Made by a program: the position numbers and the translations under genes
The notes under the pieces: model-generated
What the model was told of the DNA's origin: nothing
What the model saw: only the letters and a program-made list of their open reading frames with translations
Database searches by the model: none
Part shown: piece after piece, positions 6,838 through 52,409 of the stretch
How positions within the stretch are numbered: position 1 is the first letter of the stretch
Layout: the number at the start of each line of letters is the position of its first letter
NCBI GenBank assembly: GCA_017620915.1
Contig: JAFZSK010000014.1
Location: forward strand, 2,712 to 66,711
Direction: 5' to 3'
DNA length: 64,000 bases
From: Clostridia bacterium
Lineage (GTDB): Bacteria; Bacillota; Clostridia; UBA1212; UBA1255

Positions 6838-6978
6838 CCCAGAAATGCGGCGCCATCACCCGGTTCGCAGCCTTTGCCATCTTCCTCTTTTCCCGCCCTG
6901 CGAAGCCGAGTGAATGGCAAAGCATTTCGTTCCTCAGAAATGCGCCGCCATCACCCGGTTCGCAGCATTTGCCATTTG
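6838..6978. repeat. About 40-bp direct repeat x2 (AGAAATGCGGCGCCATCACCCGGTTCGCAGC(C/A)TTTGCCAT), spaced about 97 bp
   Basis: Copies at about 6838-6880 and 6936-6978 are nearly identical. They generate spurious small ORFs. Confidence 0.8.
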
Positions 6979-7027
6979 CCCTCCGGTATGTTATTATAGT
7001 CCCACTTCCCGAAGGGCGGTCATCAAC

Positions 7028-19348: not shown

Positions 19349-19351
19349 GTG

Positions 19352-21709
19352 ATGACATTGTCCGGATCGATCAGTAAGCTCGGGAGCGGGATACAGAAGA
19401 TCGTTGACAAATTCATGGGCTGCGGCCTGTCGCAGGAAGAGACGCGCGCCGAAGGGGAGCGATACGTCACGCCCGGAATCGGCGAAGTGGCCCGTAGAGT
19501 GGCGGCGGAGAGCGTTGTCCTCCTCAAAAACGACGGCATGCTGCCGCTCTCGAAGGAGAAGCCGGTGGCGGTGTTCGGGCGTTGTCAGTTCGACTGGTTT
19601 TACGTGGGATACGGCAGCGGCGGCAACGTCCACGCGCCCTATTATGTGAATCTGATGAAGGGGCTGGACAACGCGGGCGCGGCATACGACCGCGAACTGG
19701 CGGCGGAGTACCGCAGCTGGACAGAGAGTCCGAAATACAAGGCGAACCACGGCTGGTGGGGGCACTGGCCGTTCAGCCATCCGGAGATGGAAATCACGGA
19801 CGAGACGCTTAGGCGGGCGGCGGACAATACGGACACCGCACTGGTGGTCATCGGCCGCGCGGCCGGCGAGGATCGGGACAACCGCCTTATTCAGGGCAGC
19901 TACTATCTGACCGACGCGGAGCTCCGGCTGCTGGACCAGGTCACCGAGGCGTTTGCGCATGTTGCCGTCGTGCTCAACACCGGCAGCATCATCGATATGG
20001 CGTGGACGGAGCGGTACGGGAATAGATTGTCCGCGATCCTGATCGCGTGGCTGGGCGGCATGGAGAGCGGCAACGCGGTGGCCGACGTCCTGTACGGCGC
20101 CGTCGATCCATGCGGGAAGCTGCCGGACACCATCGCGCGGCGATACGAGGATTATCCGTCGGCGGCGAATTTCGGGGGCAAAAAGTTCAACGAATACCGC
20201 GAAGACGTGTTCGTGGGCTACCGGTATTTTGACGAGCATCCGGACCGGGTGCTGTGGCCGTTCGGGTTCGGATTGAGCTACGCGCAGTACGAGTTCGGGG
20301 CGCCGGAGGACAGCGTGCGCCTGCCGGAAGCGGACAACGCGCCGCTGCGGCTGCGCGCGGAAATTACAGTGAAGAATCTTGGCTTTTGTACAGGGGGACA
20401 GACCCCGTGTTCAAAAAGCCGGACGTCGGTGGCGCTGTATTGCCGCCGGCCGGAGGGCAATATCCGCAAGCCGCGCCGGGTGCTGGTCGCCTTCGCGATG
20501 ACGCAGGAACTGGCGCCGGGAGAGGCGGAGCGCGTGGTGCTGGAGGCGGATGCGAAGAGCATTGCCACCTTCGACGCAGACCGGAACGCGTTCGTGCTGG
20601 AAGCGGGTCAATACGAGTTTTACGCGGAATCCACCCCGATCGGCGGTTTTTCGACGGAGTTCCGCGTGCTGGAGCAGTGCACTGAGATTTGCACCTCGAG
20701 CGTCGCACTGCGCGAGCGTATCCTGTCTGATTTGAACAAGGGGACAGACCCCGTGTCAAAAGAAAGCGTGTCAGCTCACGCGGCGGAGATCTTAGACCGG
20801 CTCACGGACGCGGATATGGCGGCGTTGACCCGCGGCCACGGAATGATGAACTCCCCGCTGGGCACGAAGGGCAACGCCGGCGTTCTCGGCGGCATCACGC
20901 CGGCGCTCCGGGAAGCGGGTATTCCGCCCATTGTCACCTCCGACGGCCCCGCGGGCCTCAGGCTCGCCGCGTATTGTACGCTCTTGCCGTGCGGGACCGC
21001 CATTGCCGCCTGCCGGGACACGGCGCTGGCAGAGCAATTGTTCGCGCTGGTGGGGAATGAAATGGGGCACTACGGCATTGACATCTTCCTCGGCCCCGGC
21101 ATGAACCTGCACCGCAACCCGCTCTGCGGCCGGAATTTCGAGTATTTCGCGGAAGACCCCGTGGTCACCGGAACCATGGCGACGGCGGTGGTGCGCGGCA
21201 TACAGTCCGCGGGCAAAGCGGCCTGCCCGAAGCATTTCGCGTGCAACAACCAGGAGTTCAAGCGCAACACCAACGACTCGCGGCTGTCAACACGCGCCCT
21301 GCGCGAACTCTATCTCCGCGGCTTCGAGATCTGCGTAAAGACCGCAGCGCCCCTCGTGCTGATGACCTCGTACAACAAGGTCAACGGCGTCTGGGCCCAC
21401 TACAATTACGACCTGGCCACCGCGGTGCTGCGGGGCGAGTGGGGATTCGAGGGCCTGGTGATCACCGACTGGTGGATGCAGCGGTCAAAAAGCCCCGAAT
21501 TTCCGCGCCTCCGGGACAATGCGTACCGCGTCCGCGCGGGTGTTGACGTCCTGATGCCGGGCAACCTCGGCAAATCTGCCCACAAATACGTCCCCGACCG
21601 CTCGCTGACGAAGCGCCTCGACACGCCCGGCGGGCTTACGCGCGCCGAACTGCGCCGGACCGCGGCACGGGTGATAAGGCTGGGGGAGAAAATTAAAAGT
21701 GATAAGTGA
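19352..21709 (+). CDS. Glycoside hydrolase family 3 beta-glucosidase-like enzyme (domain order permuted; carries two in-frame palindromic element insertions)
   Basis: GH3 catalytic-domain motifs (KHFACNNQE..R, SYNKVNGVWAHYNYDL, GFEGLVITDWW) lie in the C-terminal half. The GH3 C-terminal alpha/beta domain lies in the N-terminal half. Confidence 0.8.
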   Translation: MTLSGSISKLGSGIQKIVDKFMGCGLSQEETRAEGERYVTPGIGEVARRVAAESVVLLKNDGMLPLSKEKPVAVFGRCQFDWFYVGYGSGGNVHAPYYVNLMKGLDNAGAAYDRELAAEYRSWTESPKYKANHGWWGHWPFSHPEMEITDETLRRAADNTDTALVVIGRAAGEDRDNRLIQGSYYLTDAELRLLDQVTEAFAHVAVVLNTGSIIDMAWTERYGNRLSAILIAWLGGMESGNAVADVLYGAVDPCGKLPDTIARRYEDYPSAANFGGKKFNEYREDVFVGYRYFDEHPDRVLWPFGFGLSYAQYEFGAPEDSVRLPEADNAPLRLRAEITVKNLGFCTGGQTPCSKSRTSVALYCRRPEGNIRKPRRVLVAFAMTQELAPGEAERVVLEADAKSIATFDADRNAFVLEAGQYEFYAESTPIGGFSTEFRVLEQCTEICTSSVALRERILSDLNKGTDPVSKESVSAHAAEILDRLTDADMAALTRGHGMMNSPLGTKGNAGVLGGITPALREAGIPPIVTSDGPAGLRLAAYCTLLPCGTAIAACRDTALAEQLFALVGNEMGHYGIDIFLGPGMNLHRNPLCGRNFEYFAEDPVVTGTMATAVVRGIQSAGKAACPKHFACNNQEFKRNTNDSRLSTRALRELYLRGFEICVKTAAPLVLMTSYNKVNGVWAHYNYDLATAVLRGEWGFEGLVITDWWMQRSKSPEFPRLRDNAYRVRAGVDVLMPGNLGKSAHKYVPDRSLTKRLDTPGGLTRAELRRTAARVIRLGEKIKSDK
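20384..20417. mobile_element. In-frame palindromic element copy (TTTTGTACAGGGGGACAGACCCCGTGTTCAAAAA) inside the GH3 gene
   Basis: Imperfect palindrome. It encodes the extra peptide FCTGGQTPCSKS within a GH3 beta-sandwich region. It has TGT where the consensus TGA would create an in-frame stop. Confidence 0.7.
20731..20762. mobile_element. Second in-frame palindromic element copy (TTTGAACAAGGGGACAGACCCCGTGTCAAAAG) inside the GH3 gene, in a different reading frame
   Basis: Encodes LNKGTDPVSKE. Same core, GGGGACAGACCCC. Confidence 0.7.
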
Positions 21710-32743: not shown

Positions 32744-34981
32744 ATGAATGCCGGGGCGCTGAAGCGTGCTATCCGAATATTGACCTTGCTCCTGGCGGGG
32801 TGCGTATTGACCGCGGCGGTGTGCGGCTGCACGAAACGGCGGGATAACAACGGCACTGCGACCGATGGAGGTCCGACAGACACGGTGGGTCCCGGTACTG
32901 TGCTGGTCCGGCTGGCGGAGGATGCGGGTGAGCCGGAGGGCGGGGTGTTGACCTTTGAAGGCTACCGCATTTACGCATGTAACGGCGGGCTCGTGATCGA
33001 AGGCGGCAGCGAGGAAGGCACCCGCGCCGCAGTCGAATACTATACAGAAAATCTGGAGCCGGCAGGAGTGGAAGCGTTGCCGCCGGACTATTATTACGCG
33101 TTCCATCCGTTTATGATGGCGCGCGGGCTGACGGTGTGCGGGCGTCCGATCTCGGATTATAAGATCCGTGTGGAGGCGGGGGACGAGTTGGCCGCCGTTG
33201 CCGCCGAATACATCCGAAAGTACGTATTCACGCACACCGGTGAAACGATGGAGTACGCCTCGGTCAACGAAGATCCGGCATCACCGGAACTCGTTTTTCA
33301 CTACTTTTCCGGCGTCGGCGGCAGCACCAAGGGATATGTAAACGTTGACGCGCAGCAGATCCTGATCTTATCAAACGAGACCCTCGGATTCTTCCGGCTG
33401 TTCCGGGACTTTTTAAACGAGGGAACAGACTTGCCGCCGGATCCGGACGCGGGACCGGCCCGGATAACTGAACCGGCCGCTTTCGTTAAAGACTATGGCG
33501 AGTTTTTGACCTACGAGGAATTCGGCGCGGCGGGCGACGGCGTCACAGACGACTCACAGGCGATATACAAGGCACATAAAGCCGCGAACGAAACAGGAAA
33601 ATTGATCCTGGCGCGTGAAGACGCCACATACTATATCGAAACCGGAATAAATGCGATGATCACCACCGGCATCGACTGGTCCGTTGCTCATTTTGTGATC
33701 GACGACAGCAATCTTGATCCCGGGCAGCTTTCGCTGTATTTGTTCCACGTACCGTACTCAGTGAAAGCCGGCAGCCTCGGCGGGGCTATTGGCACGCTTG
33801 CGGCGGGGCAGGAGCATATTGACGTCGGAGGGGAATTGCCGGGGAAGGCGCTGGTCACCGTTTTCAACGACCGCGTCCTCCAGTACATCCGCAAAGGCGT
33901 AAATCAGAACGATGGCACTCCCATGCGCGAAGTGATTCTGGTGGACGGGGAGGGGAATGTCGACCCGTCGACGCCGGTGATCTGGGACTATGCCAGTGTC
34001 ACATCGGCGACGTACAAACTGGTCGACGAACCGCCCCTTACGATACGCGGCGGGATATTCACCACCATTGCCAACCGCGCCAAAAGTGAATATAACTACT
34101 ACAGCCGTGGCATCGATATCCAGCGTTCGCAGCTGTTGATCGAGGACGTCTGCCACTATATCACCGGCGAAGGCAGCACCGGCGCACCGTACGCAGGCTT
34201 TTTCATGATCTCGCAGTGCTGCGGCGTCACCATGAAAAACTGCGTCATCACGCCGCACAAGACGTACTGGACCACCGGCTCCGGCGGCCTGCCTTCCGCC
34301 ATGGGTTCATACGAATGTCAGGCCAATTCGACCGTGGGGCTTTCGTGGATCAACGTCATCCAGTCCCGCAGCATCAACGACACCGCGTACTGGGGCACAT
34401 TTGCGTCAAGCTTTTCGCGCAATATCCTGTTTGACGGCTGCCGGCTGAGCCGTTTCGACGCGCACATGGGCGTATGCAACGTCACTCTCCGCAATTGCCA
34501 TTTGGGCCACCAGGGCATCAATCTCATCGGCCACGGCACGGCGCGCCTCGAAAACTGCGCGGTGTACGGCAGCAATCTGGTCAACCTGCGCTCCGACTAC
34601 GGCTCCTCCTGGAACGGCGACCTGATCATCCGCAACTGTTATTTCTATCCGAAAAACGGCAAATACGCCAATGCCGTGCTCATCGGCGGCGCGAACTCGT
34701 TTGACCACGATTTCGGGTACACGTGCTATCTGCCGCGGACGATCGACATCGACGGGCTGTATATTGACGACCGCAATCCGGGGGACAGCGAGCGCCCGCC
34801 GATGCTGTTCGCGGACTTCAACAGCAGATATGACTCGGCGGACTACACCGGGGCGTATCCGCTGGTGCTGCCGGAGAAAATAATAGTCAGCGGCCTGCGC
34901 ACGTACTCGGGCAAACCGCTGGCAATGTCAGTCAATGAGTTTATGTTCGCCGGCCTTGAGATCGAACAGCGGGGAGGGTGA
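32744..34981 (+). CDS. Secreted lipoprotein with right-handed parallel beta-helix (pectin-lyase-fold) domain
   Basis: Signal peptide with lipobox LLAGCVL. Repeated NxxxRNC / NCxxxG coils, e.g. NVTLRNCHLGHQGINLIGHGTARLENCAVYGSNLVNLRSD...LIIRNCYFY. GAAAGGAAGG RBS. Confidence 0.7.
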   Translation: MNAGALKRAIRILTLLLAGCVLTAAVCGCTKRRDNNGTATDGGPTDTVGPGTVLVRLAEDAGEPEGGVLTFEGYRIYACNGGLVIEGGSEEGTRAAVEYYTENLEPAGVEALPPDYYYAFHPFMMARGLTVCGRPISDYKIRVEAGDELAAVAAEYIRKYVFTHTGETMEYASVNEDPASPELVFHYFSGVGGSTKGYVNVDAQQILILSNETLGFFRLFRDFLNEGTDLPPDPDAGPARITEPAAFVKDYGEFLTYEEFGAAGDGVTDDSQAIYKAHKAANETGKLILAREDATYYIETGINAMITTGIDWSVAHFVIDDSNLDPGQLSLYLFHVPYSVKAGSLGGAIGTLAAGQEHIDVGGELPGKALVTVFNDRVLQYIRKGVNQNDGTPMREVILVDGEGNVDPSTPVIWDYASVTSATYKLVDEPPLTIRGGIFTTIANRAKSEYNYYSRGIDIQRSQLLIEDVCHYITGEGSTGAPYAGFFMISQCCGVTMKNCVITPHKTYWTTGSGGLPSAMGSYECQANSTVGLSWINVIQSRSINDTAYWGTFASSFSRNILFDGCRLSRFDAHMGVCNVTLRNCHLGHQGINLIGHGTARLENCAVYGSNLVNLRSDYGSSWNGDLIIRNCYFYPKNGKYANAVLIGGANSFDHDFGYTCYLPRTIDIDGLYIDDRNPGDSERPPMLFADFNSRYDSADYTGAYPLVLPEKIIVSGLRTYSGKPLAMSVNEFMFAGLEIEQRGG

Positions 34982-39012: not shown

Positions 39013-40539
39013 TTGGCCGGGGAGACAGGAAAGCAATACGAGGCCGTGATCGGCCTGGAGATACATATCGAGGTCAAAGGCGCCGGCAAGATGTTCTGCG
39101 GGTGTCCGGCGGAGTTTTCGTTGACGCCCAACGTCAACGTCTGCCCGATCTGCATGGGCTACCCCGGGGCGCTGCCGCGGTTCAACCGGCGCGTGTTGGC
39201 CCCGGCGGTGCGCGAAGGGCTGATGCTGGGCGCGGAGATCGCGCGGGAGGTCCGGTTCGACCGCAAACACTATTTTTATCCCGACCTGCCGAAGGGCTAC
39301 CAGATCACTCAGGCCGAACTGCCGCTGGCATCCGGCGGCGCGATCTTTGTGCACGGGGACAGACCCGCTTTTGAACACGGGGACAGACCAGTGTTCAAAA
39401 ACGAGGACGAAGTTGCGATCCGCATCCGCCGCATGCACATGGAGGAGGACGCCGCGAAGGTCAATTACGGCGCGGACGGCGCAATGCGCATCGACTACAA
39501 CCGCGCGGGGGTGCCGCTGCTGGAGATCGTCACCGAACCCGACCTGCGGAGCGGCGCGGAAGCGGCGGAATTCGCGGAAAAGCTGCGGCTGTACACGGTG
39601 TACGCGGGGGTCTCGGACTGCCGGATGAACGAGGGCAGTATGCGCATTGACGTCAACGTCTCCGTTCACCGCCCCGGCGATCCGCCCGGCAGCCGGGTGG
39701 AACTGAAAAACATCAATTCCTTTGCGTTCATGCGGGCGGCGATCGATTTCGAAGTCCGGCGCCAGACCGCGCTGCTGGAGGCGGGAGAGGCCGTGCCCCA
39801 GGAGACCCGGCGGTTCTCCGAGGAGACGGGGGAGACGCTCCCGATGCGAGCTAAAGAAAATTCAGCGGAGTACCGGTATCTGCCGGAGCGGGATATTGTC
39901 CCCGTGCCGGTGAGCGCGGAACTGATCGAAGCGGAACGCAAAGCATTGCCGGAAAGACCGGAGGCGAAACTCGCGCGGTATATTGAATCGTTCGGGCTGC
40001 GGGCCGCGGACGCGGAACTGATCGCCTCGGAACCGGCGCGGGCGGCGTATTATGAAGCGGTGTGCGGCGCGGCGGAAATCGCGAGGCGGTATGAGGCGGA
40101 AGCGGCCAAGTTCTGTATCTCCCGGGTGTTTCCCGGCAAGGCGTTGCTGACAACAGCGCAGACCGCGGCGATCGTACGGCTCATTGCGGAAGGCGAACTG
40201 GGCAGCGCGAATGTGGTAAAACTGATCGAGGCGGTGAGCGGCAGACCGGACGCGGATCCGGCCGCGGAGCTGGCCGCGCGGGAACTGGGGCTGATCCGGG
40301 ACGAGGCGGTACTGGCCGAGGCGGCGGACAACGCCATTCGTGATAACCCCGAGGCAGTGCGGCAATACCTGAACGGCAAAACGGCGGCGCTGCAGGCGCT
40401 GAAGGGCGCGTGCATGAAGGCGACGCGGGGGAGAGCGGAACCGATGCGACTTGATTCGGTGCTTAAAAGCAAGTTGCAAATGTCAAATGGCAAAGGGCAA
40501 GTTGCAAATGGCAAGTTGCAAATGGCAAAGGGAAAATGA
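39013..40539 (+). CDS. gatB: Asp-tRNA(Asn)/Glu-tRNA(Gln) amidotransferase subunit B, with in-frame palindromic insertion and low-complexity C-terminal tail
   Basis: YEAVIGLEIHIEVKGAGKMFCGCPAEF...CPICMGYPGALP... then the cradle domain and C-terminal YqeY-like domain. TTG start chosen at 39013 with GAGGAGG RBS. The track ORF extends spuriously upstream. Confidence 0.8.
   Translation: MAGETGKQYEAVIGLEIHIEVKGAGKMFCGCPAEFSLTPNVNVCPICMGYPGALPRFNRRVLAPAVREGLMLGAEIAREVRFDRKHYFYPDLPKGYQITQAELPLASGGAIFVHGDRPAFEHGDRPVFKNEDEVAIRIRRMHMEEDAAKVNYGADGAMRIDYNRAGVPLLEIVTEPDLRSGAEAAEFAEKLRLYTVYAGVSDCRMNEGSMRIDVNVSVHRPGDPPGSRVELKNINSFAFMRAAIDFEVRRQTALLEAGEAVPQETRRFSEETGETLPMRAKENSAEYRYLPERDIVPVPVSAELIEAERKALPERPEAKLARYIESFGLRAADAELIASEPARAAYYEAVCGAAEIARRYEAEAAKFCISRVFPGKALLTTAQTAAIVRLIAEGELGSANVVKLIEAVSGRPDADPAAELAARELGLIRDEAVLAEAADNAIRDNPEAVRQYLNGKTAALQALKGACMKATRGRAEPMRLDSVLKSKLQMSNGKGQVANGKLQMAKGK
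39345..39402. mobile_element. Tandem (about 2 copies) in-frame palindromic element inside gatB (CTTTGTGCACGGGGACAGACCCGCTTTTGAACACGGGGACAGACCAGTGTTCAAAAAC)
   Basis: Encodes the inserted peptide VHGDRPAFEHGDRPVFKN between conserved GatB segments. Confidence 0.7.
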
Positions 40540-40583
40540 TAAAGGGCAAATTGAAAATGGTGAGCGGAGAAGGGAAGAAAAAG

Positions 40584-42125
40584 ATGAGTAATGGATACGT
40601 AAACACCGGACTGCGGGAATTCACCGCGCGGCTGCCGGAGCAGAAGATCGCTGTGCTGGGCTTCGGCGTCAGCAACCGCGCGCTGCTGCGGTTTTTGAAG
40701 GCCAACGGCGCGAAAAAAGTGTTTCTGCTGGAACTGAAGGACAGCGCGGAGGCGCGGGCAGAGGCGGAGGCGCTGGCGGCGGACGGCACGCTGGCGGGAT
40801 TTACGTTCGGGGAGGGGTATCTGGACGGATTGCCCGCAGGCGGCTTCGACCTGATCTTCCGGTCGCCGATAATACGGCCGGACGAGGCGCATATTGACGC
40901 CGCCGTGCGGAACGGAGCGGTATTGACCTCCGAAATGGAAGTGTTCATGGAGCATTGCCCCTGCCCGATGTACGCCATCACCGGCAGCGACGGCAAGACC
41001 ACCACGACCACGCTCACCGCGCGCCTGCTGGAGGAACATTATAAGGACACGGACGTGCGGATCTGGCTCGGCGGCAACATCGGCACCCCCCTCATCGACA
41101 AACTCGACCTGATCCGGCCCCGCGACCGCGTGGTGCTGGAGCTGTCCAGTTTCCAGCTGATGCACACGCGCGTTTCGCCCGAAGCGTCCGCGATCACCAA
41201 CATCACGCCCAACCACCTGAACGTGCACAAGGACTATCAGGAATATATCGATGCCAAAAAGGCCATTTTCAACCGGCCGCTTTTGAACAGGGGACAGACC
41301 CCGATTTTAAACGGGGGACAGACCCGTGTTCAAAAAAAGCGGGTGGTGCTGAACGCAGGCAACGCAGTCACCGCCGGCATCGCGCGCGACCTGGCGGAAA
41401 ACAATGCGGGGGATATGATCGTTGACGTCTTTACCGCCAAATCCGCGAAGGAGACCGCGTTGACGCTGGCGCACAACGGCGCCACGGCGTATTTTGACGA
41501 CGGCAAACTCGTGTTCACCGGCTTCTGCGCGGGCTGCGGCGCCTGCGCGGGACAGCGCTTCGAACTGGCGCGGGAAAACGTGCAGCTTCCGGGCATGCAC
41601 AATGTGGAAAACCTCATGACCGCGGCGCTGCTGCTCCGGACGGAGATCAGCCCGGAGGACGTGCGCGCAGTTGCCGCCCGCTTCGGCGGCGTCGAGCACC
41701 GGCTCGAAAAAGTGCGAGAGCTGGACGGCGTGACGTACATCAACAGTTCTATTGACAGCAGCCCCGAACGCACGATCAACGCGCTCTCGGTATTTCCCGA
41801 CCGCAGCCTAGTGATGATCGCCGGAGGCAAGGACAAAAACCTCGACTACTCGCCGCTGGGCGCGCATCTGGTGCGCAAGGTCAAAACGCTGATCCTCACC
41901 GGTCCCACCGCGGACAAGATCGAGGCGTCGCTGAATGCCGCCGGAGGCGCGGATATTGTCAACGTCGTTCACGCTTCTTCGTATCCCGAGGCGGTTGCCG
42001 CCGCGCGGCGGTGCGCCGTGGCCGGAGATGTTGTCCTCCTGTCGCCCGCCAGCACCAGCTTCGACATGTTCAAAAATTTTGAAGAGCGGGGCAATACGTT
42101 CAAACGGCTGGTGAACGAGCTATAA
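40584..42125 (+). CDS. murD: UDP-N-acetylmuramoyl-L-alanine--D-glutamate ligase, carrying an in-frame palindromic insertion
   Basis: KIAVLGFGVSNRAL Rossmann-like N-terminus, Mur ligase P-loop TGSDGKTTTTTL, and ...GGNIGTPL..., ..NSSIDSSPERT.. MurD motifs. RBS GGAGAAGGG before the ATG at 40584. Confidence 0.85.
   Translation: MSNGYVNTGLREFTARLPEQKIAVLGFGVSNRALLRFLKANGAKKVFLLELKDSAEARAEAEALAADGTLAGFTFGEGYLDGLPAGGFDLIFRSPIIRPDEAHIDAAVRNGAVLTSEMEVFMEHCPCPMYAITGSDGKTTTTTLTARLLEEHYKDTDVRIWLGGNIGTPLIDKLDLIRPRDRVVLELSSFQLMHTRVSPEASAITNITPNHLNVHKDYQEYIDAKKAIFNRPLLNRGQTPILNGGQTRVQKKRVVLNAGNAVTAGIARDLAENNAGDMIVDVFTAKSAKETALTLAHNGATAYFDDGKLVFTGFCAGCGACAGQRFELARENVQLPGMHNVENLMTAALLLRTEISPEDVRAVAARFGGVEHRLEKVRELDGVTYINSSIDSSPERTINALSVFPDRSLVMIAGGKDKNLDYSPLGAHLVRKVKTLILTGPTADKIEASLNAAGGADIVNVVHASSYPEAVAAARRCAVAGDVVLLSPASTSFDMFKNFEERGNTFKRLVNEL
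41280..41338. mobile_element. Tandem in-frame palindromic element inside murD (CTTTTGAACAGGGGACAGACCCCGATTTTAAACGGGGGACAGACCCGTGTTCAAAAAAA)
   Basis: Encodes LLNRGQTPILNGGQTRVQKK, inserted in the central domain. Confidence 0.7.
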
Positions 42126-49498: not shown

Positions 49499-51955
49499 AT
49501 GAAAAAGATCATTATTTCAACGATATTGGTGCTGGCGATGTTATTGTCGCTGTGCAGCTTTGCCGGTGCCGCGGAAACGCCGTGGGAATACTGCCAGATG
49601 GATTTTGTACTGCTCTGGAACAAAGACGTGGCATTCATCGAGAACATGGGCAAGGGCAGTGATCTCGGCCAGATCAAACCGGCCGTTGACGCCGGGGCCA
49701 ACGGCATCTGCCTGATGGGCTGGTATTATCCGCCAACGACAGATGAGATCGTTGACTACGGTTATCAGGTGGATGACGGCGAGATCGTGTACGATTCCAT
49801 TGCCTGTATTTACGACGCGAATCTGGCGCCTGCGCTCGTGTCCTTTGGCGGCGACTGGGTCGATCGTGCCGACTATGCCCGTAACTTCAACGGCAACATC
49901 CCGATCCAGGAAGGCAGCCACACGGTCAAACTGATCGCCAGGTTCGCGGACGGTTCCACAAAAGCCATTTATCAGACCCGTTACGCCAACGACGATTCCG
50001 ACCTCGCGCTGAACAAGCCGGTCTATATCGAGCTGAAGAACGGTGTCCGCAACGGTTCGGGCTACTGGGACGATTCGTTCATCAACGACGGCTACAATCC
50101 CGTGCACAAGCCTGATGTGGTTCCGGATCCGGTGCCGCTGGGCTTTTATCCGATCGCCGCCGGACACGTGGTCGCGGATATATACATTGACCTCGAAGGC
50201 GAGTACGACCTGGAAAAAGTCACGCTCCACTCCCAGGGCTTCTATAGTGACTCCTTCCCGAACACATACAATGTGTATACGTCCAAAGACGGCGCCAGCT
50301 GGGATAAGATCGGCGGCGAAAGCGGACGGACCGGTGAAGTCGATACCGCCGAGCCCTTCGTGTATGCCACCACCAACCGTGCGCGCTTTATCAAAGTAGA
50401 GGTGCTCTCGGGCAATATCGTTGACGACAGCGGCTTCGAATACATGGGCATCGGCGAGATCGAGGCGTACGGCAAATACGCCGGCAAATCCACCGTGGTC
50501 AAACCCGGCTACATTCCTTACTCGAACTATTCGGGCGGCGTGGCGTTCGGCGACGCGGGCGGCAATTCCGCCTGGACCGGCTTCACTACCGGCACGCTTA
50601 CTTATAAATTTATGTTCAACACCGATGTGTCGTTCTACAAGATCGGCTTCCCGGTGGCGTGGGGCCTTGCGGGCACGCCGCTGAAGTTCGAGTTTAAGAA
50701 GGACGGGGAGGTCGTTGCCACCCAGACGTACACGGCAGTCGGCGACGCGCCGTTCACGCTGGACATCGGCAAGACGCTCGAAGCGGGCGAGTATGAGGTC
50801 ATTGTCACCATCACGGACGATGAGCTCCGGCCGGAAGGCGACCCGAACGCCGGCGCCTACCTGTATTACATGGTATTCGGCTACGCGACCGAAGGCGTGC
50901 TGGACAACACATACTTCGCCCAGGAGCGCGGCCAGATCGCCTTCGATCTATACTCGAACGAAACGAATGGCCAGGGCTTCATCAAGCGCGAATACAAGCA
51001 GCACGCCAACATTGACGCGGTCTCGCTGGACGGGGAGAGCAAGGGCAATGAGAACGGCCTGGCGATCACAGTAAGCGAGAACAGCCAGAACATCCTGGTG
51101 CACGGCTGGCTGGCGGCCAACTATCCGATCGAAAAGTACGGGTACAAAGTTGACGGCGGCGCGGCGGTGTACGACGACAGCTTCCTCAACCGGGATTACG
51201 GTACGGCGGAAGCGCCCAACGCGGACTATTTCGCGATCCTCGGCGTGGCGCAGGATCTGTACAGCGTCGCGGGCAACGGTTTCCGTGCCAACGTTCTTGT
51301 CCCCGTGACCGAAGGCGGCCACTCTGTGGAGATCGTGGCGATGGTCGCCGGTGAAGAGAAAGTGTTCTACACCTTCACGTACGCGCCGGAAGGCGTGCAT
51401 GTGCCGGTGACGCGCAGTTTTGACGCGGATACGGACAATCAGTACTTCGACGCTATCTTCTACAACAACGAGGACGCTCCCCGGGCCAACGGCAACGATG
51501 AAGTGGCGGCGCTGAAGACGCTCATTGACGGCTCGGCCGGTGACATCGAAGTGCTGGGTCTGTACGGCTGGTTCTCTTCCGATTCCCCGATCGTGCAGTT
51601 TGGTTATGTGCTGGACGGCAGGGATCCGGTATTTGACGACGCGTTCACGGCGCCGCTAAACGCCGGGGAAGAGGAGGCGATCGGCGGTTCCAGAGCGGGC
51701 GGCAAGCGGTACCGCGTGAATATTGACGTCACCCGCCTGAACGACGGCAATACCCACGAGATCAAAGTCGTGGCAAAACTGGAAAACGGCGACACGGTCA
51801 TCTTCGACCGGGCCAACCGGGAAGCGATCGTATACTACAAGGCGCCCGGCGCTGAACTGCCCGGTACCGGTGACGCAGTGATCCTCGTGCTCGCCGCGAT
51901 CGCGCTGCTGGCAATGACCGCCGCAGTGATATTCATTCGCAAAAAAGCGCATTGA
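49499..51955 (+). CDS. Cell-wall-anchored surface protein paralog (818 aa): F5/8 type C-like domain, shared C-terminal module, canonical LPGTG anchor
   Basis: Signal peptide MKKIIISTILVLAMLLSLCSFAGA. F5/8-C-like block around residues 165-320. The C-terminal 150 aa are about 75% identical to protein 1. Ends ...LPGTGDAVILVLAAIALLAMTAAVIFIRKKAH. Confidence 0.8.
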   Translation: MKKIIISTILVLAMLLSLCSFAGAAETPWEYCQMDFVLLWNKDVAFIENMGKGSDLGQIKPAVDAGANGICLMGWYYPPTTDEIVDYGYQVDDGEIVYDSIACIYDANLAPALVSFGGDWVDRADYARNFNGNIPIQEGSHTVKLIARFADGSTKAIYQTRYANDDSDLALNKPVYIELKNGVRNGSGYWDDSFINDGYNPVHKPDVVPDPVPLGFYPIAAGHVVADIYIDLEGEYDLEKVTLHSQGFYSDSFPNTYNVYTSKDGASWDKIGGESGRTGEVDTAEPFVYATTNRARFIKVEVLSGNIVDDSGFEYMGIGEIEAYGKYAGKSTVVKPGYIPYSNYSGGVAFGDAGGNSAWTGFTTGTLTYKFMFNTDVSFYKIGFPVAWGLAGTPLKFEFKKDGEVVATQTYTAVGDAPFTLDIGKTLEAGEYEVIVTITDDELRPEGDPNAGAYLYYMVFGYATEGVLDNTYFAQERGQIAFDLYSNETNGQGFIKREYKQHANIDAVSLDGESKGNENGLAITVSENSQNILVHGWLAANYPIEKYGYKVDGGAAVYDDSFLNRDYGTAEAPNADYFAILGVAQDLYSVAGNGFRANVLVPVTEGGHSVEIVAMVAGEEKVFYTFTYAPEGVHVPVTRSFDADTDNQYFDAIFYNNEDAPRANGNDEVAALKTLIDGSAGDIEVLGLYGWFSSDSPIVQFGYVLDGRDPVFDDAFTAPLNAGEEEAIGGSRAGGKRYRVNIDVTRLNDGNTHEIKVVAKLENGDTVIFDRANREAIVYYKAPGAELPGTGDAVILVLAAIALLAMTAAVIFIRKKAH

Positions 51956-52039
51956 GATTGCTGTTGAATGAGGACTTGCGCATAAACTCGCAGCTGTTGC
52001 AGTTCATGAGCCGTGTCTTCAAAAAAGTAAGAGGAATTT

Positions 52040-52215
52040 GTTCAAACGAGCGCGTTTGTCTTACATTCTCGCTCATTTGACCGGGTAATCAACGTGACTG
52101 ATAAGACAAGATTTCTCAAATGAGTGATCTTGTCTTATTTTGTTCTCTCCAGGTCTTCAAAATGTAAGACAATATGCCTCAAACGGGCAAAAATGTCTTA
52201 CTTTTCGCCTTTTGG
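52040..52215. repeat. Tandem palindromic repeat family E: 3 copies of about 65 bp with (G)TAAGACAA-N22-TTGTCTTA(C)
   Basis: Example: GATAAGACAAGATTTCTCAAATGAGTGATCTTGTCTTAT. Lies upstream of ldh. Confidence 0.8.
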
Positions 52216-52409
52216 GCAGGTCACAGACGCAGCCGACCTTTGCCATTTGCCCTTTGTCATTTACCCCCTGTCCCTTGCCCTTTGCCCCTTGCGCCAAGGC
52301 TGTCTTCGTGGTACAATACTATGAGGTGCTTTGGCCGCAGGCCCGAACGCCGCCAAATGGCAATTTGCAAACAGCAAGTTGCATGAAATAATTCAGAAGG
52401 TGAAATTCA

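Follow-up and report, generated by a model that had tools for sequence, protein, structure and literature searches.

The gene for the cell-wall ligase MurD, in a stretch of 64,000 nucleotides from a Clostridia bacterium (assembly GCA_017620915.1, contig JAFZSK010000014.1, forward-strand positions 2,712 to 66,711; hereafter the 64-kb window, whose own numbering is used below), carries a tandem palindromic element that is translated in frame, and that is not a peculiarity of murD, being one member of a lineage-specific repeat family. We consider it likely that the element is a hairpin resembling the repetitive extragenic palindromes (REPs), which was probably dispersed by a Y1 transposase, has been kept as a translated surface loop, and changes its number of units via slippage.

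The murD array, at 41277-41339, reads [CCGC-TTTTGAACA-GGGGACAGACC][CCGA-TTTTAAAC-GGGGGACAGACC]-CGTGTTCAAAAAAAG, and consists of two in-frame units of 24 nt, each a left arm followed by a core, with one shared right arm closing the structure. The gene and the parts of the array are as follows.

40584..42125, + strand: murD, the host gene, in its annotated 513-residue form (the longest open reading frame, ORF, 40536..42125, starts at 40536).
41272..41347, + strand: extended quasi-palindrome, comprising the whole dimer with its GC flanks (GCCGC...GCGGG).
41277..41300, + strand: unit 1, with left arm TTTTGAACA at 41281-41289 and core GGGGACAGACCCC at 41290-41302; peptide P-L-L-N-R-G-Q-T.
41301..41324, + strand: unit 2, with the left-arm variant TTTTAAAC at 41305-41312 and core GGGGGACAGACCC at 41313-41325.
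41326..41339, + strand: the one right arm, GTGTTCAAAA followed by an A-run; peptide V-Q-K-K.

A preliminary description of this DNA had proposed a tandem palindromic element in murD, and both of its ingredients, the direct units and the quasi-palindrome, were recovered in a repeat search: unit 2 is 88% identical to unit 1 at an offset of 24 nt (8 codons), and the quasi-palindrome has 36-nt arms (41272-41307 against 41309-41344) that are 72% complementary. In a scan of the window with an nhmmer profile, for which 36 copies of the family were used, unit 2 and the right arm together gave E=1.3e-10, and unit 1, as a partial unit, E=2e-5. Folded as single-stranded DNA, the 76-nt stretch reaches -24.7 kcal/mol, as against -10.6 +/- 2.1 for shuffled sequences (z = -6.6), and 0/200 shuffles match it. 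The reading frame is unbroken across the array, which encodes P-LLNRGQT-PILNGGQT-RVQKK; the Lys-Lys of the right arm may be partly native, as it aligns with a conserved K/K of clade relatives.

The host ORF (40536..42125, + strand) was identified as MurD by TIGR01087 (299.6 bits, cut-off 212) and by matches to MurD structures in the PDB, and its product is 100% identical to a protein from an NCBI 'Clostridia bacterium' metagenome-assembled genome (MAG); the ORF is open throughout, which bears out the earlier statement that the element does not disrupt the frame. In the 513-residue form the insert amounts to about 13 residues, 236-248 (RGQTPILNGGQTR), and in an AlphaFold model (mean predicted local distance difference test score, pLDDT, of 84 and predicted template modelling score, pTM, of 0.83 overall) it lies in the central domain between a helix (218-230) and a strand (252-257). 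The pLDDT falls below 50 at exactly these residues, the sole other such segment being 490-498 near the C-terminus. Judging from sequence and model, the element would be translated as a disordered, hydrophilic loop, RGQTPILNGGQTR, leading from helix to strand. Outgroup MurD proteins of 480 residues have AKxRIYA directly joined to RVVLNAG, with the segment absent, which argues for an insertion rather than native sequence and agrees with the earlier expectation that distant MurD proteins would offer no counterpart. The MurD proteins of clade relatives carry unrelated inserts, of various lengths, at the same position.

The basic element of the family is a hairpin, TTTTGAACAC-GGGG-ACAGA-CCCC-GTGTTCAAAA, of about 33-36 nt, with AT-rich arms that contain T- and A-runs. 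Its consensus is CCnTTTTTGAACAnGGGGACAGACCCCGTGTTCAAAAA, of which GGGGACAGA-CC is invariant, while the lower stem covaries around this constant part (GAACAC/GTGTTC, AAGCAC/GTGCTT, TGACAC/GTGTCA and GAACGC/GCGTCC). Among 30 copies, pre-selected for pairing, 85% of the cells in the 15-bp helix are paired and 6/15 pairs are altered on both sides, which 2/500 shuffles reach; fold z-scores of family hairpins lie between -3 and -6.6. When species-representative genomes were searched (185,579 in all), the exact pattern GGGGACAGACC-N(0-3)-GTGTTCAAAA turned up in just 1, that of the rumen MAG RUG12823 (14 matches on 10 contigs); it was also present in 18 metagenomic stretches, all from a single project. 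No match (0) was obtained among the IMG/VR viral contigs, and a phage origin was rejected on this ground. Listing of cores gave 40 in 11 RUG12823 stretches (about 57 kb) and 59 in the 18 metagenome stretches, and all cores in the fetched DNA reduce to about 47 unique loci, some between genes and some inside them.

Within the window, the core GGGACAGACCC occurs 7 times at up to one mismatch, compared with 0.86 expected, and 0/100 shuffles reach 7. The profile search returned only 4 significant loci, which together hold six units (a density of 6 cores in 64 kb) and are all intragenic (4/4). Besides murD, the copies are the following.

39346..39402, + strand: gatB array, TTTGTGCAC-GGGGACAGACCC-GC-TTTTGAACAC-GGGGACAGACCA-GTGTTCAAAAAC, a dimer in 24-nt register.
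20381..20420, + strand: GH3 site 1, a single complete hairpin, GGC-TTTTGTACA-GGGGGACAGACCCC-GTGTTCAAAAA-GCC, in the GH3 glycosidase ORF 19349..21709.
20730..20762, + strand: GH3 site 2, a second single hairpin, in an inter-domain linker; peptide LNKGTDPVSK.
33407..33430, + strand, sense orientation: a probable decayed copy, TTTTTAAACGAGGGAACAGAC (left arm and core), in the 745-residue ORF 32744..34981; weak, with nhmmer E=0.09.

Two of these copies can be counted as insertions on the same reasoning as in murD. The gatB array encodes HGDRPAFEHGDRPVFKN, in a beta-hairpin turn ahead of RIRRMHMEEDA, and the GatB structures in the PDB have 11-14 residues fewer at this position. GH3 site 1 encodes FCTGGQTPCSKS within an Fn3-like 'KNTG..G.E..LY' motif, and in the GH3 homologue of a relative (L033, whose MurD is 64% identical) this motif is canonical, KNTGKFVGKEAVLVY, and uninterrupted. 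At GH3 site 2 the same homologue has another hairpin array in this linker, one with a 45-nt period and in opposite orientation. The core is read in three frames, as GQT in murD, GDRP in gatB and GTDP in GH3, with all frames intact, so no peptide is conserved.

Comparison with sister strains, which the preliminary description had recommended, showed that the murD site differs between them. RUG12823, which is 82-88% identical to the window at the nucleotide level, has the element at the same murD, gatB and GH3 (both) sites; the 11-nt core is identical at these four orthologous sites, and the surrounding coding sequence differs by 12-18%. In murD there are two cores in the window and in a near-identical strain (L025), as opposed to one in RUG12823 (L003), L001 and L028, in which CTGAACGCGTTTGCGTCCGG stands ahead of the core. 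This CTGAACGCGTTTGCGTCCGG keeps arm-like GAACGCG/GCGTCC inverted repeats and lacks the core, and the total length differs by 3 nt; either one lineage has let the left unit decay, or the other has had it renewed or converted. Neither a murD site free of polymorphism among the sister genomes nor homologous residues in distant MurD proteins was thus found. Changes of unit number are seen at further loci: the gatB array of L003 has two units and that of L028 a single one, a clean 24-nt indel with flanks 99.3% identical; a complete 36-nt element separates L010 from L020, with flanks 99-100% identical; and L012 has two units and L024 three. A filled and a shorter site, which also speak for insertion, are seen in the tadA-luxS linker, where L002 is 42 nt longer than L027.

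These data bear on how the murD dimer arose. It had been suggested that the central GATTTTAAAC is a junction of a right arm and a left arm, left by a deletion after head-to-tail duplication of the element. A duplication is kept here, as one of a 24-nt [left arm + core] unit; the deletion step is not supported, and we do not favour the junction reading, with TTTTAAAC being an ordinary left-arm variant. The variant TTTT(T)AAAC(A) is also present on single complete copies (L026+2395, L008+2008 and L009-7689), almost all 24-25-nt arrays have 'G-N-TTTTGAACA' after their first core, and the layout 'left arm-core-left arm-core-right arm' is repeated, in 24-nt register, in gatB and in 8 or more further loci. 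Because of this recurrence, and of the clean 24-nt indel in gatB, duplication of the 24-nt unit would be a simpler account than a deletion junction. An older collapse of a full head-to-tail dimer is still conceivable, as such dimers, with 33-36-nt periods, exist at L012+2550 and L030+2676. Template-switch 'palindrome correction' was rejected as a source of unit 2, since the cores are direct and not inverted, with the ACAGA loop on the same strand in both.

Other forms of variation were noted in the sister loci. At GH3 site 1 of the RUG12823 type (L007 1979-2020, L015 2198-2240) only the right arm has been doubled (CCGTGTTCAAAAAGC x2, 15 nt, adding PCSKS), meaning that pieces smaller than the element can also expand in frame. 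In L008 2030-2075 (= L017 265-310), a variant with a TTGACAC arm puts TTGACA exactly 17 nt upstream of TATAAT, so the repeat can create a promoter-like site between genes. L020 has, at 1470-1560, a pair of inverted hairpins whose arms are GAACGC/GCGTCC and which are separated by about 55 nt, an arrangement like that of REPINs, within one continuous frame that scores as coding.

Location and orientation are both uneven across the family. Array periods inside genes are always 24 nt (8 codons), as opposed to 22, 24, 25, 30, 33, 35, 36 and 45 nt between genes, and roughly 22 of the 47 unique loci (4/4 in the window) cross an open, coding-like frame, with 2/3 of frames being free of stops in each orientation of the element. 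With the window as its training set, a codon-usage frame model gave about 19 intragenic copies as sense (ACAGA strand) and 3 as antisense, whereas the orientation of intergenic copies is less biased, roughly 10 to 5. Element orientation tends to track the sign of the GC skew; when replication-strand and transcription-strand bias were tested by GC skew, the two signals were confounded and the contigs short. The sense bias could come from strand-specific insertion into single strands exposed by replication, from selection for hydrophilic, turn-forming peptides (GDRP, GTDP and GQT as opposed to GVCP and GSVP), or from an effect at the RNA level. Translational bypass or removal of the element is not favoured, given that in-gene copies keep the frame and that their periods are multiples of three, unlike those between genes.

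The link to a mobilising enzyme comes from relatives. The L033 contig carries two Y1_Tnp genes, the best NCBIfam match of which is NF047646, REP-associated tyrosine transposase (RAYT), at 78.3 bits, compared with 23.9 bits for the IS200 model. Hairpins with the core of the window element, GCAAC-GGGGGACAGACCCC-GGTTGC and GGAAC-GGGGGACAGGTACCC-GTTCC, are abundant on this contig, mostly intergenic, adjoin the Y1 genes and include perfect inverted pairs. Homologous Y1 genes in other metagenomes (L034-L037) are flanked by ggaacaGGGGACAGGC..., and those of organisms with 35% GC by aacacaGGGGACGGttctgtgtt, which in L040/L041 stands on the + strand upstream and on the - strand just past the stop codon. 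A signature of a stem ending in ACAC followed by GGGGAC(A/G)G appears to travel with this transposase clade, and the window hairpin, GAACAC-GGGGACAG-ACCCC-GTGTTC, would fit it. On the contigs of seven RAYT homologues (the five closest, P0122-P0126, plus P0133 and P0188) no Y1 gene was flanked by AT-rich arms of the window type, and only related heads were present. The homologues are about 250-260 residues long, several with a C-terminal HTH_23 match, and P0133 occurs twice on one contig, a behaviour like that of an insertion sequence (IS).

Two further observations were made around these genes. Directly after the stop codon of the RAYT-like gene in L033 (17627-17790) lie 12 tandem copies of the 10-nt TTTCGACNTT. 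On the P0133 and P0188 contigs (L040-L049; 35% GC), Y1 genes alternate with cassettes for RHS/YD-shell toxin tips, an identical copy occurring twice, 2.7 kb apart, which suggests that the Y1 transposase or its hairpins may take part in shuffling RHS tips.

Taken together, these results would fit the following course of events. The family probably belongs to a wider set of hairpins, with the head 'stem-GGGGAC(A/G)G', that flank RAYT-like HUH/Y1 genes in related and more distant Clostridia, and most likely originated by single-strand, Y1-transposase-mediated dispersal of hairpins. Copies in genes would survive only where the frame is kept and the site is a permissive loop or linker, in line with the intact frames and the positions in MurD, GatB and GH3. 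Unit number would shift in 24-nt steps, by slipped-strand events or unequal exchange between direct repeats, as the polymorphism between strains suggests.

Several points weigh against this reading. Since the murD, gatB and GH3 insertions occupy the same sites at 82-88% identity, they appear to be old, with no sign of recent transposition, and no clean empty site with a defined target was recovered among the loci compared, the best pair (L002/L027) being 81% identical with an ambiguous alignment. A tblastn search with the Y1 proteins of L033, which covered the 64-kb window and same-lineage loci of about 190 kb (L001-L030, a sample short of whole genomes), found no gene for a Y1 transposase, so the link rests on relatives, and mobilisation in the window genome is something we infer. 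The NF047646 score of 78.3 is just under the curated cut-off of 80. Duplication of 24 nt does not alone fully explain the RUG12823 murD left unit without a core, for which decay or conversion is needed. The covariation favours a maintained hairpin modestly, the copies having been pre-selected for pairing.

[quoted passage not shown] Orthologous copies are fixed at the same sites at 82-88% nucleotide identity, no transposase was found in the sampled DNA, and all polymorphisms seen are gains or losses of units bounded by direct repeats, including the 36-nt indel, which has CGTGTTCAAAAA on both sides. An identical core at orthologous sites whose flanks differ by 12-18% also fits homogenisation by conversion. 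However, slippage cannot account for one 33-nt hairpin being present in three frames and in unrelated genes and spacers by the dozen, and the GGGGACRG head, which is common to RAYT-flanking hairpins from 35% to 60% GC, is hard to account for without a protein that recognises it.

The sense bias and the stability of the hairpin would also suit a function in the mRNA, such as ribosome pausing at domain boundaries or protection from 3' exonucleases, that keeps the element in place. REPs between cistrons have been proposed to shield upstream mRNA from 3' exonucleases. The bias of about 19 to 3 among intragenic copies, the location of intergenic copies mainly between co-directional genes, the invariant core at orthologous sites and the z-scores of -3 to -6.6 are all compatible with such a role. 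We nevertheless judge it unlikely: the orientation of the element is confounded with that of the gene and with GC skew, so that strand-specific insertion or a preference for hydrophilic peptides accounts for the bias just as well, the genes hit have no function in common, and relatives manage without the element. Moreover, no Rfam family matches it; with Rfam 15, nothing reached the gathering threshold across the window, and near the element there were chance-level matches only, with E about 0.6-0.9.

It is more improbable still that the 11-12-nt core is a selected DNA word, such as an uptake signal or a site for a chromosome-organising protein. The uptake sequences of Haemophilus and Neisseria are words tolerated inside genes, and here, too, a short invariant core in AT-rich surroundings, restricted to one lineage, often lies in permissive regions of genes and in several frames. 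Against this stand the low density (6 cores in 64 kb), the paired, covarying arms and tandem arrays, and the association of the motif with Y1 genes in relatives, with nothing that bears on competence. Finally, an ordinary lineage-specific MurD loop with a chance palindrome, or an assembly artefact, has next to no probability. The loop between AKKxIF and RVVLNAGN does vary in length among clade relatives, but the same 33-nt hairpin is found in unrelated genes and spacers, 0/100 shuffles reach the core count, and the copies in independent assemblies (NCBI, ENA, RUG12823 and the JAEEGL metagenome) refute this reading.

A bolder extension of the preferred Y1-dispersal reading, offered tentatively and with more doubt than conviction, is that an undescribed REP-type system exists in rumen and gut Clostridia, in which a clade of RAYT-like Y1 enzymes, some with a C-terminal helix-turn-helix match, would recognise hairpins with GGGGAC(A/G)G heads. 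Such hairpins would, in one lineage, have spread through coding sequence genome-wide, preferentially in sense orientation, and the loops would persist in MurD and GatB with a core invariant across species. If the sense bias and core conservation reflect activity and not history, transcribed or lagging-strand single-stranded DNA might still be targeted, or the RNA hairpin might have a role; either would be an experimentally tractable model for the entry of REP-like elements into genes and for new protein loops.

Palindromic 'selfish DNA' carried in frame by housekeeping genes has its best-known cases in Rickettsia, the Rickettsia palindromic elements (RPEs), and in a small number of Proteobacteria and Verrucomicrobia that are rich in REPs. 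To our knowledge, the route by which such palindromes enter genes, and the enzyme that moves them, are largely unresolved. The present family adds in-frame palindromes from an uncultured lineage of rumen Clostridia, with a very small element, an increment of 24 nt (8 codons) and unit-number polymorphism that is visible between close strains, and the link of the GGGGACRG head to a RAYT-like clade provides a concrete candidate pair of enzyme and substrate. The copies are also natural examples of loop insertions tolerated by MurD and GatB. In practical terms, these hairpin repeats inflate and fragment MAG assemblies, and the lineage-specific indels that they cause in marker genes can mislead alignment and annotation.

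The window contains other short repeats. Arrays of a 7-nt unit, (G/T)GCAAA(T/G), lie at 40470-40560 and also at 6873-6980, 8889, 11160, 52239-52290 and 52352-52371; about 12 of these units extend across the 3' end of gatB and the murD leader, and are translated as a Lys/Gly-rich GatB tail. A 13-nt probe for this second, unrelated repeat family gave 20 matches compared with 2.3 expected. In the intergenic region at 52010-52205, downstream of a gene that ends at 51955, five TGTCTTA(C/T) in both orientations are accompanied by two GTCTTCAAAA, and together they resemble a cluster of short repeats, of operator type or another; in RUG12823 (L011) the corresponding spacer has a hairpin dimer with a 22-nt period in its place.

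Among described elements, REPs tagged with GTAG or CGTC are the nearest in kind. They are palindromes of 20-40 nt, high in copy number and mostly intergenic, and those with a GTAG tag are associated with RAYT genes (PMC3733652); intragenic GTAG- and CGTC-tagged copies, often dimers or groups and argued to fall in loops or linkers, were reported from Opitutus terrae, Rickettsia conorii and others, with no mention of Firmicutes (Di Nocera et al. 2013, PMC3733652). The window family is likewise a short imperfect palindrome (33-36 nt) in many copies (about 47 loci). Its window loci depart from the definition of REPs by being 4/4 inside ORFs, yet intragenic REPs are documented for accepted families (PMC3733652). 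It differs from the GTAG and CGTC REPs in having AT-rich arms and no tag, the conserved word being instead GGGGAC(A/G)G, in the loop and the uppermost part of the 5' arm; in its arrays, which are head-to-tail truncated 24-nt units with one right arm and not head-to-head or tail-to-tail pairs; and in its rumen Clostridia host, very high intragenic share and marked sense bias. A literature search for the core word returned unrelated eukaryotic primer matches only.

RPEs are palindromic repeats in frame in unrelated housekeeping genes, translated and compatible with the fold (Ogata et al. 2000, as summarised in PMC10969869), and the window element, too, is in frame at fold-compatible sites (the MurD loop, the GatB turn and the GH3 linker). 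RPEs are, however, about 100-150 bp long and add 30-50 residues, whereas the window element has 33-36 nt (24 per extra unit) and adds 8-21. RPE-1 to RPE-10 are Rickettsia families with a conserved peptide, in an obligate intracellular host; the window element, from a free-living, gut-associated Clostridia MAG, is read in three frames with no conserved peptide and has no sequence similarity to them, and unlike for RPEs, a candidate family of mobilising enzymes can be identified in relatives.

Closer in mechanism, if the Y1 link holds, are the REP/RAYT systems of Proteobacteria (REPtrons, REPINs). As in these, Y1/HUH genes are flanked by inverted hairpins in L033 and L040/L041, and the best family match is the REP-associated tyrosine transposase; unlike in REPtrons, no RAYT was seen in the window or the same-lineage loci searched, and several of the homologues have an HTH_23 match, with P0133 duplicated. 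Abundant REPs have been connected with RAYT groups 2 and 3, whereas in Clostridia group 1 is the only one noted (PMC5581495). Like the palindrome-associated elements derived from IS200/IS605 (PATEs) and like MITEs, the window element is small, repeated, non-autonomous and, as the Y1 link would imply, hairpin-dependent on a Y1 transposase. PATEs and MITEs measure 70-400 bp (MITEs, as usually defined, 70-300 bp), with distinct left and right ends or terminal inverted repeats plus target duplications, whereas the window element is one hairpin of <40 nt, and no target-site duplication was evident at the filled and variant sites compared. Set among these systems, the element in murD is a Clostridial example of a known, uncommon case, in which selfish palindromes are translated as surface loops of essential proteins.

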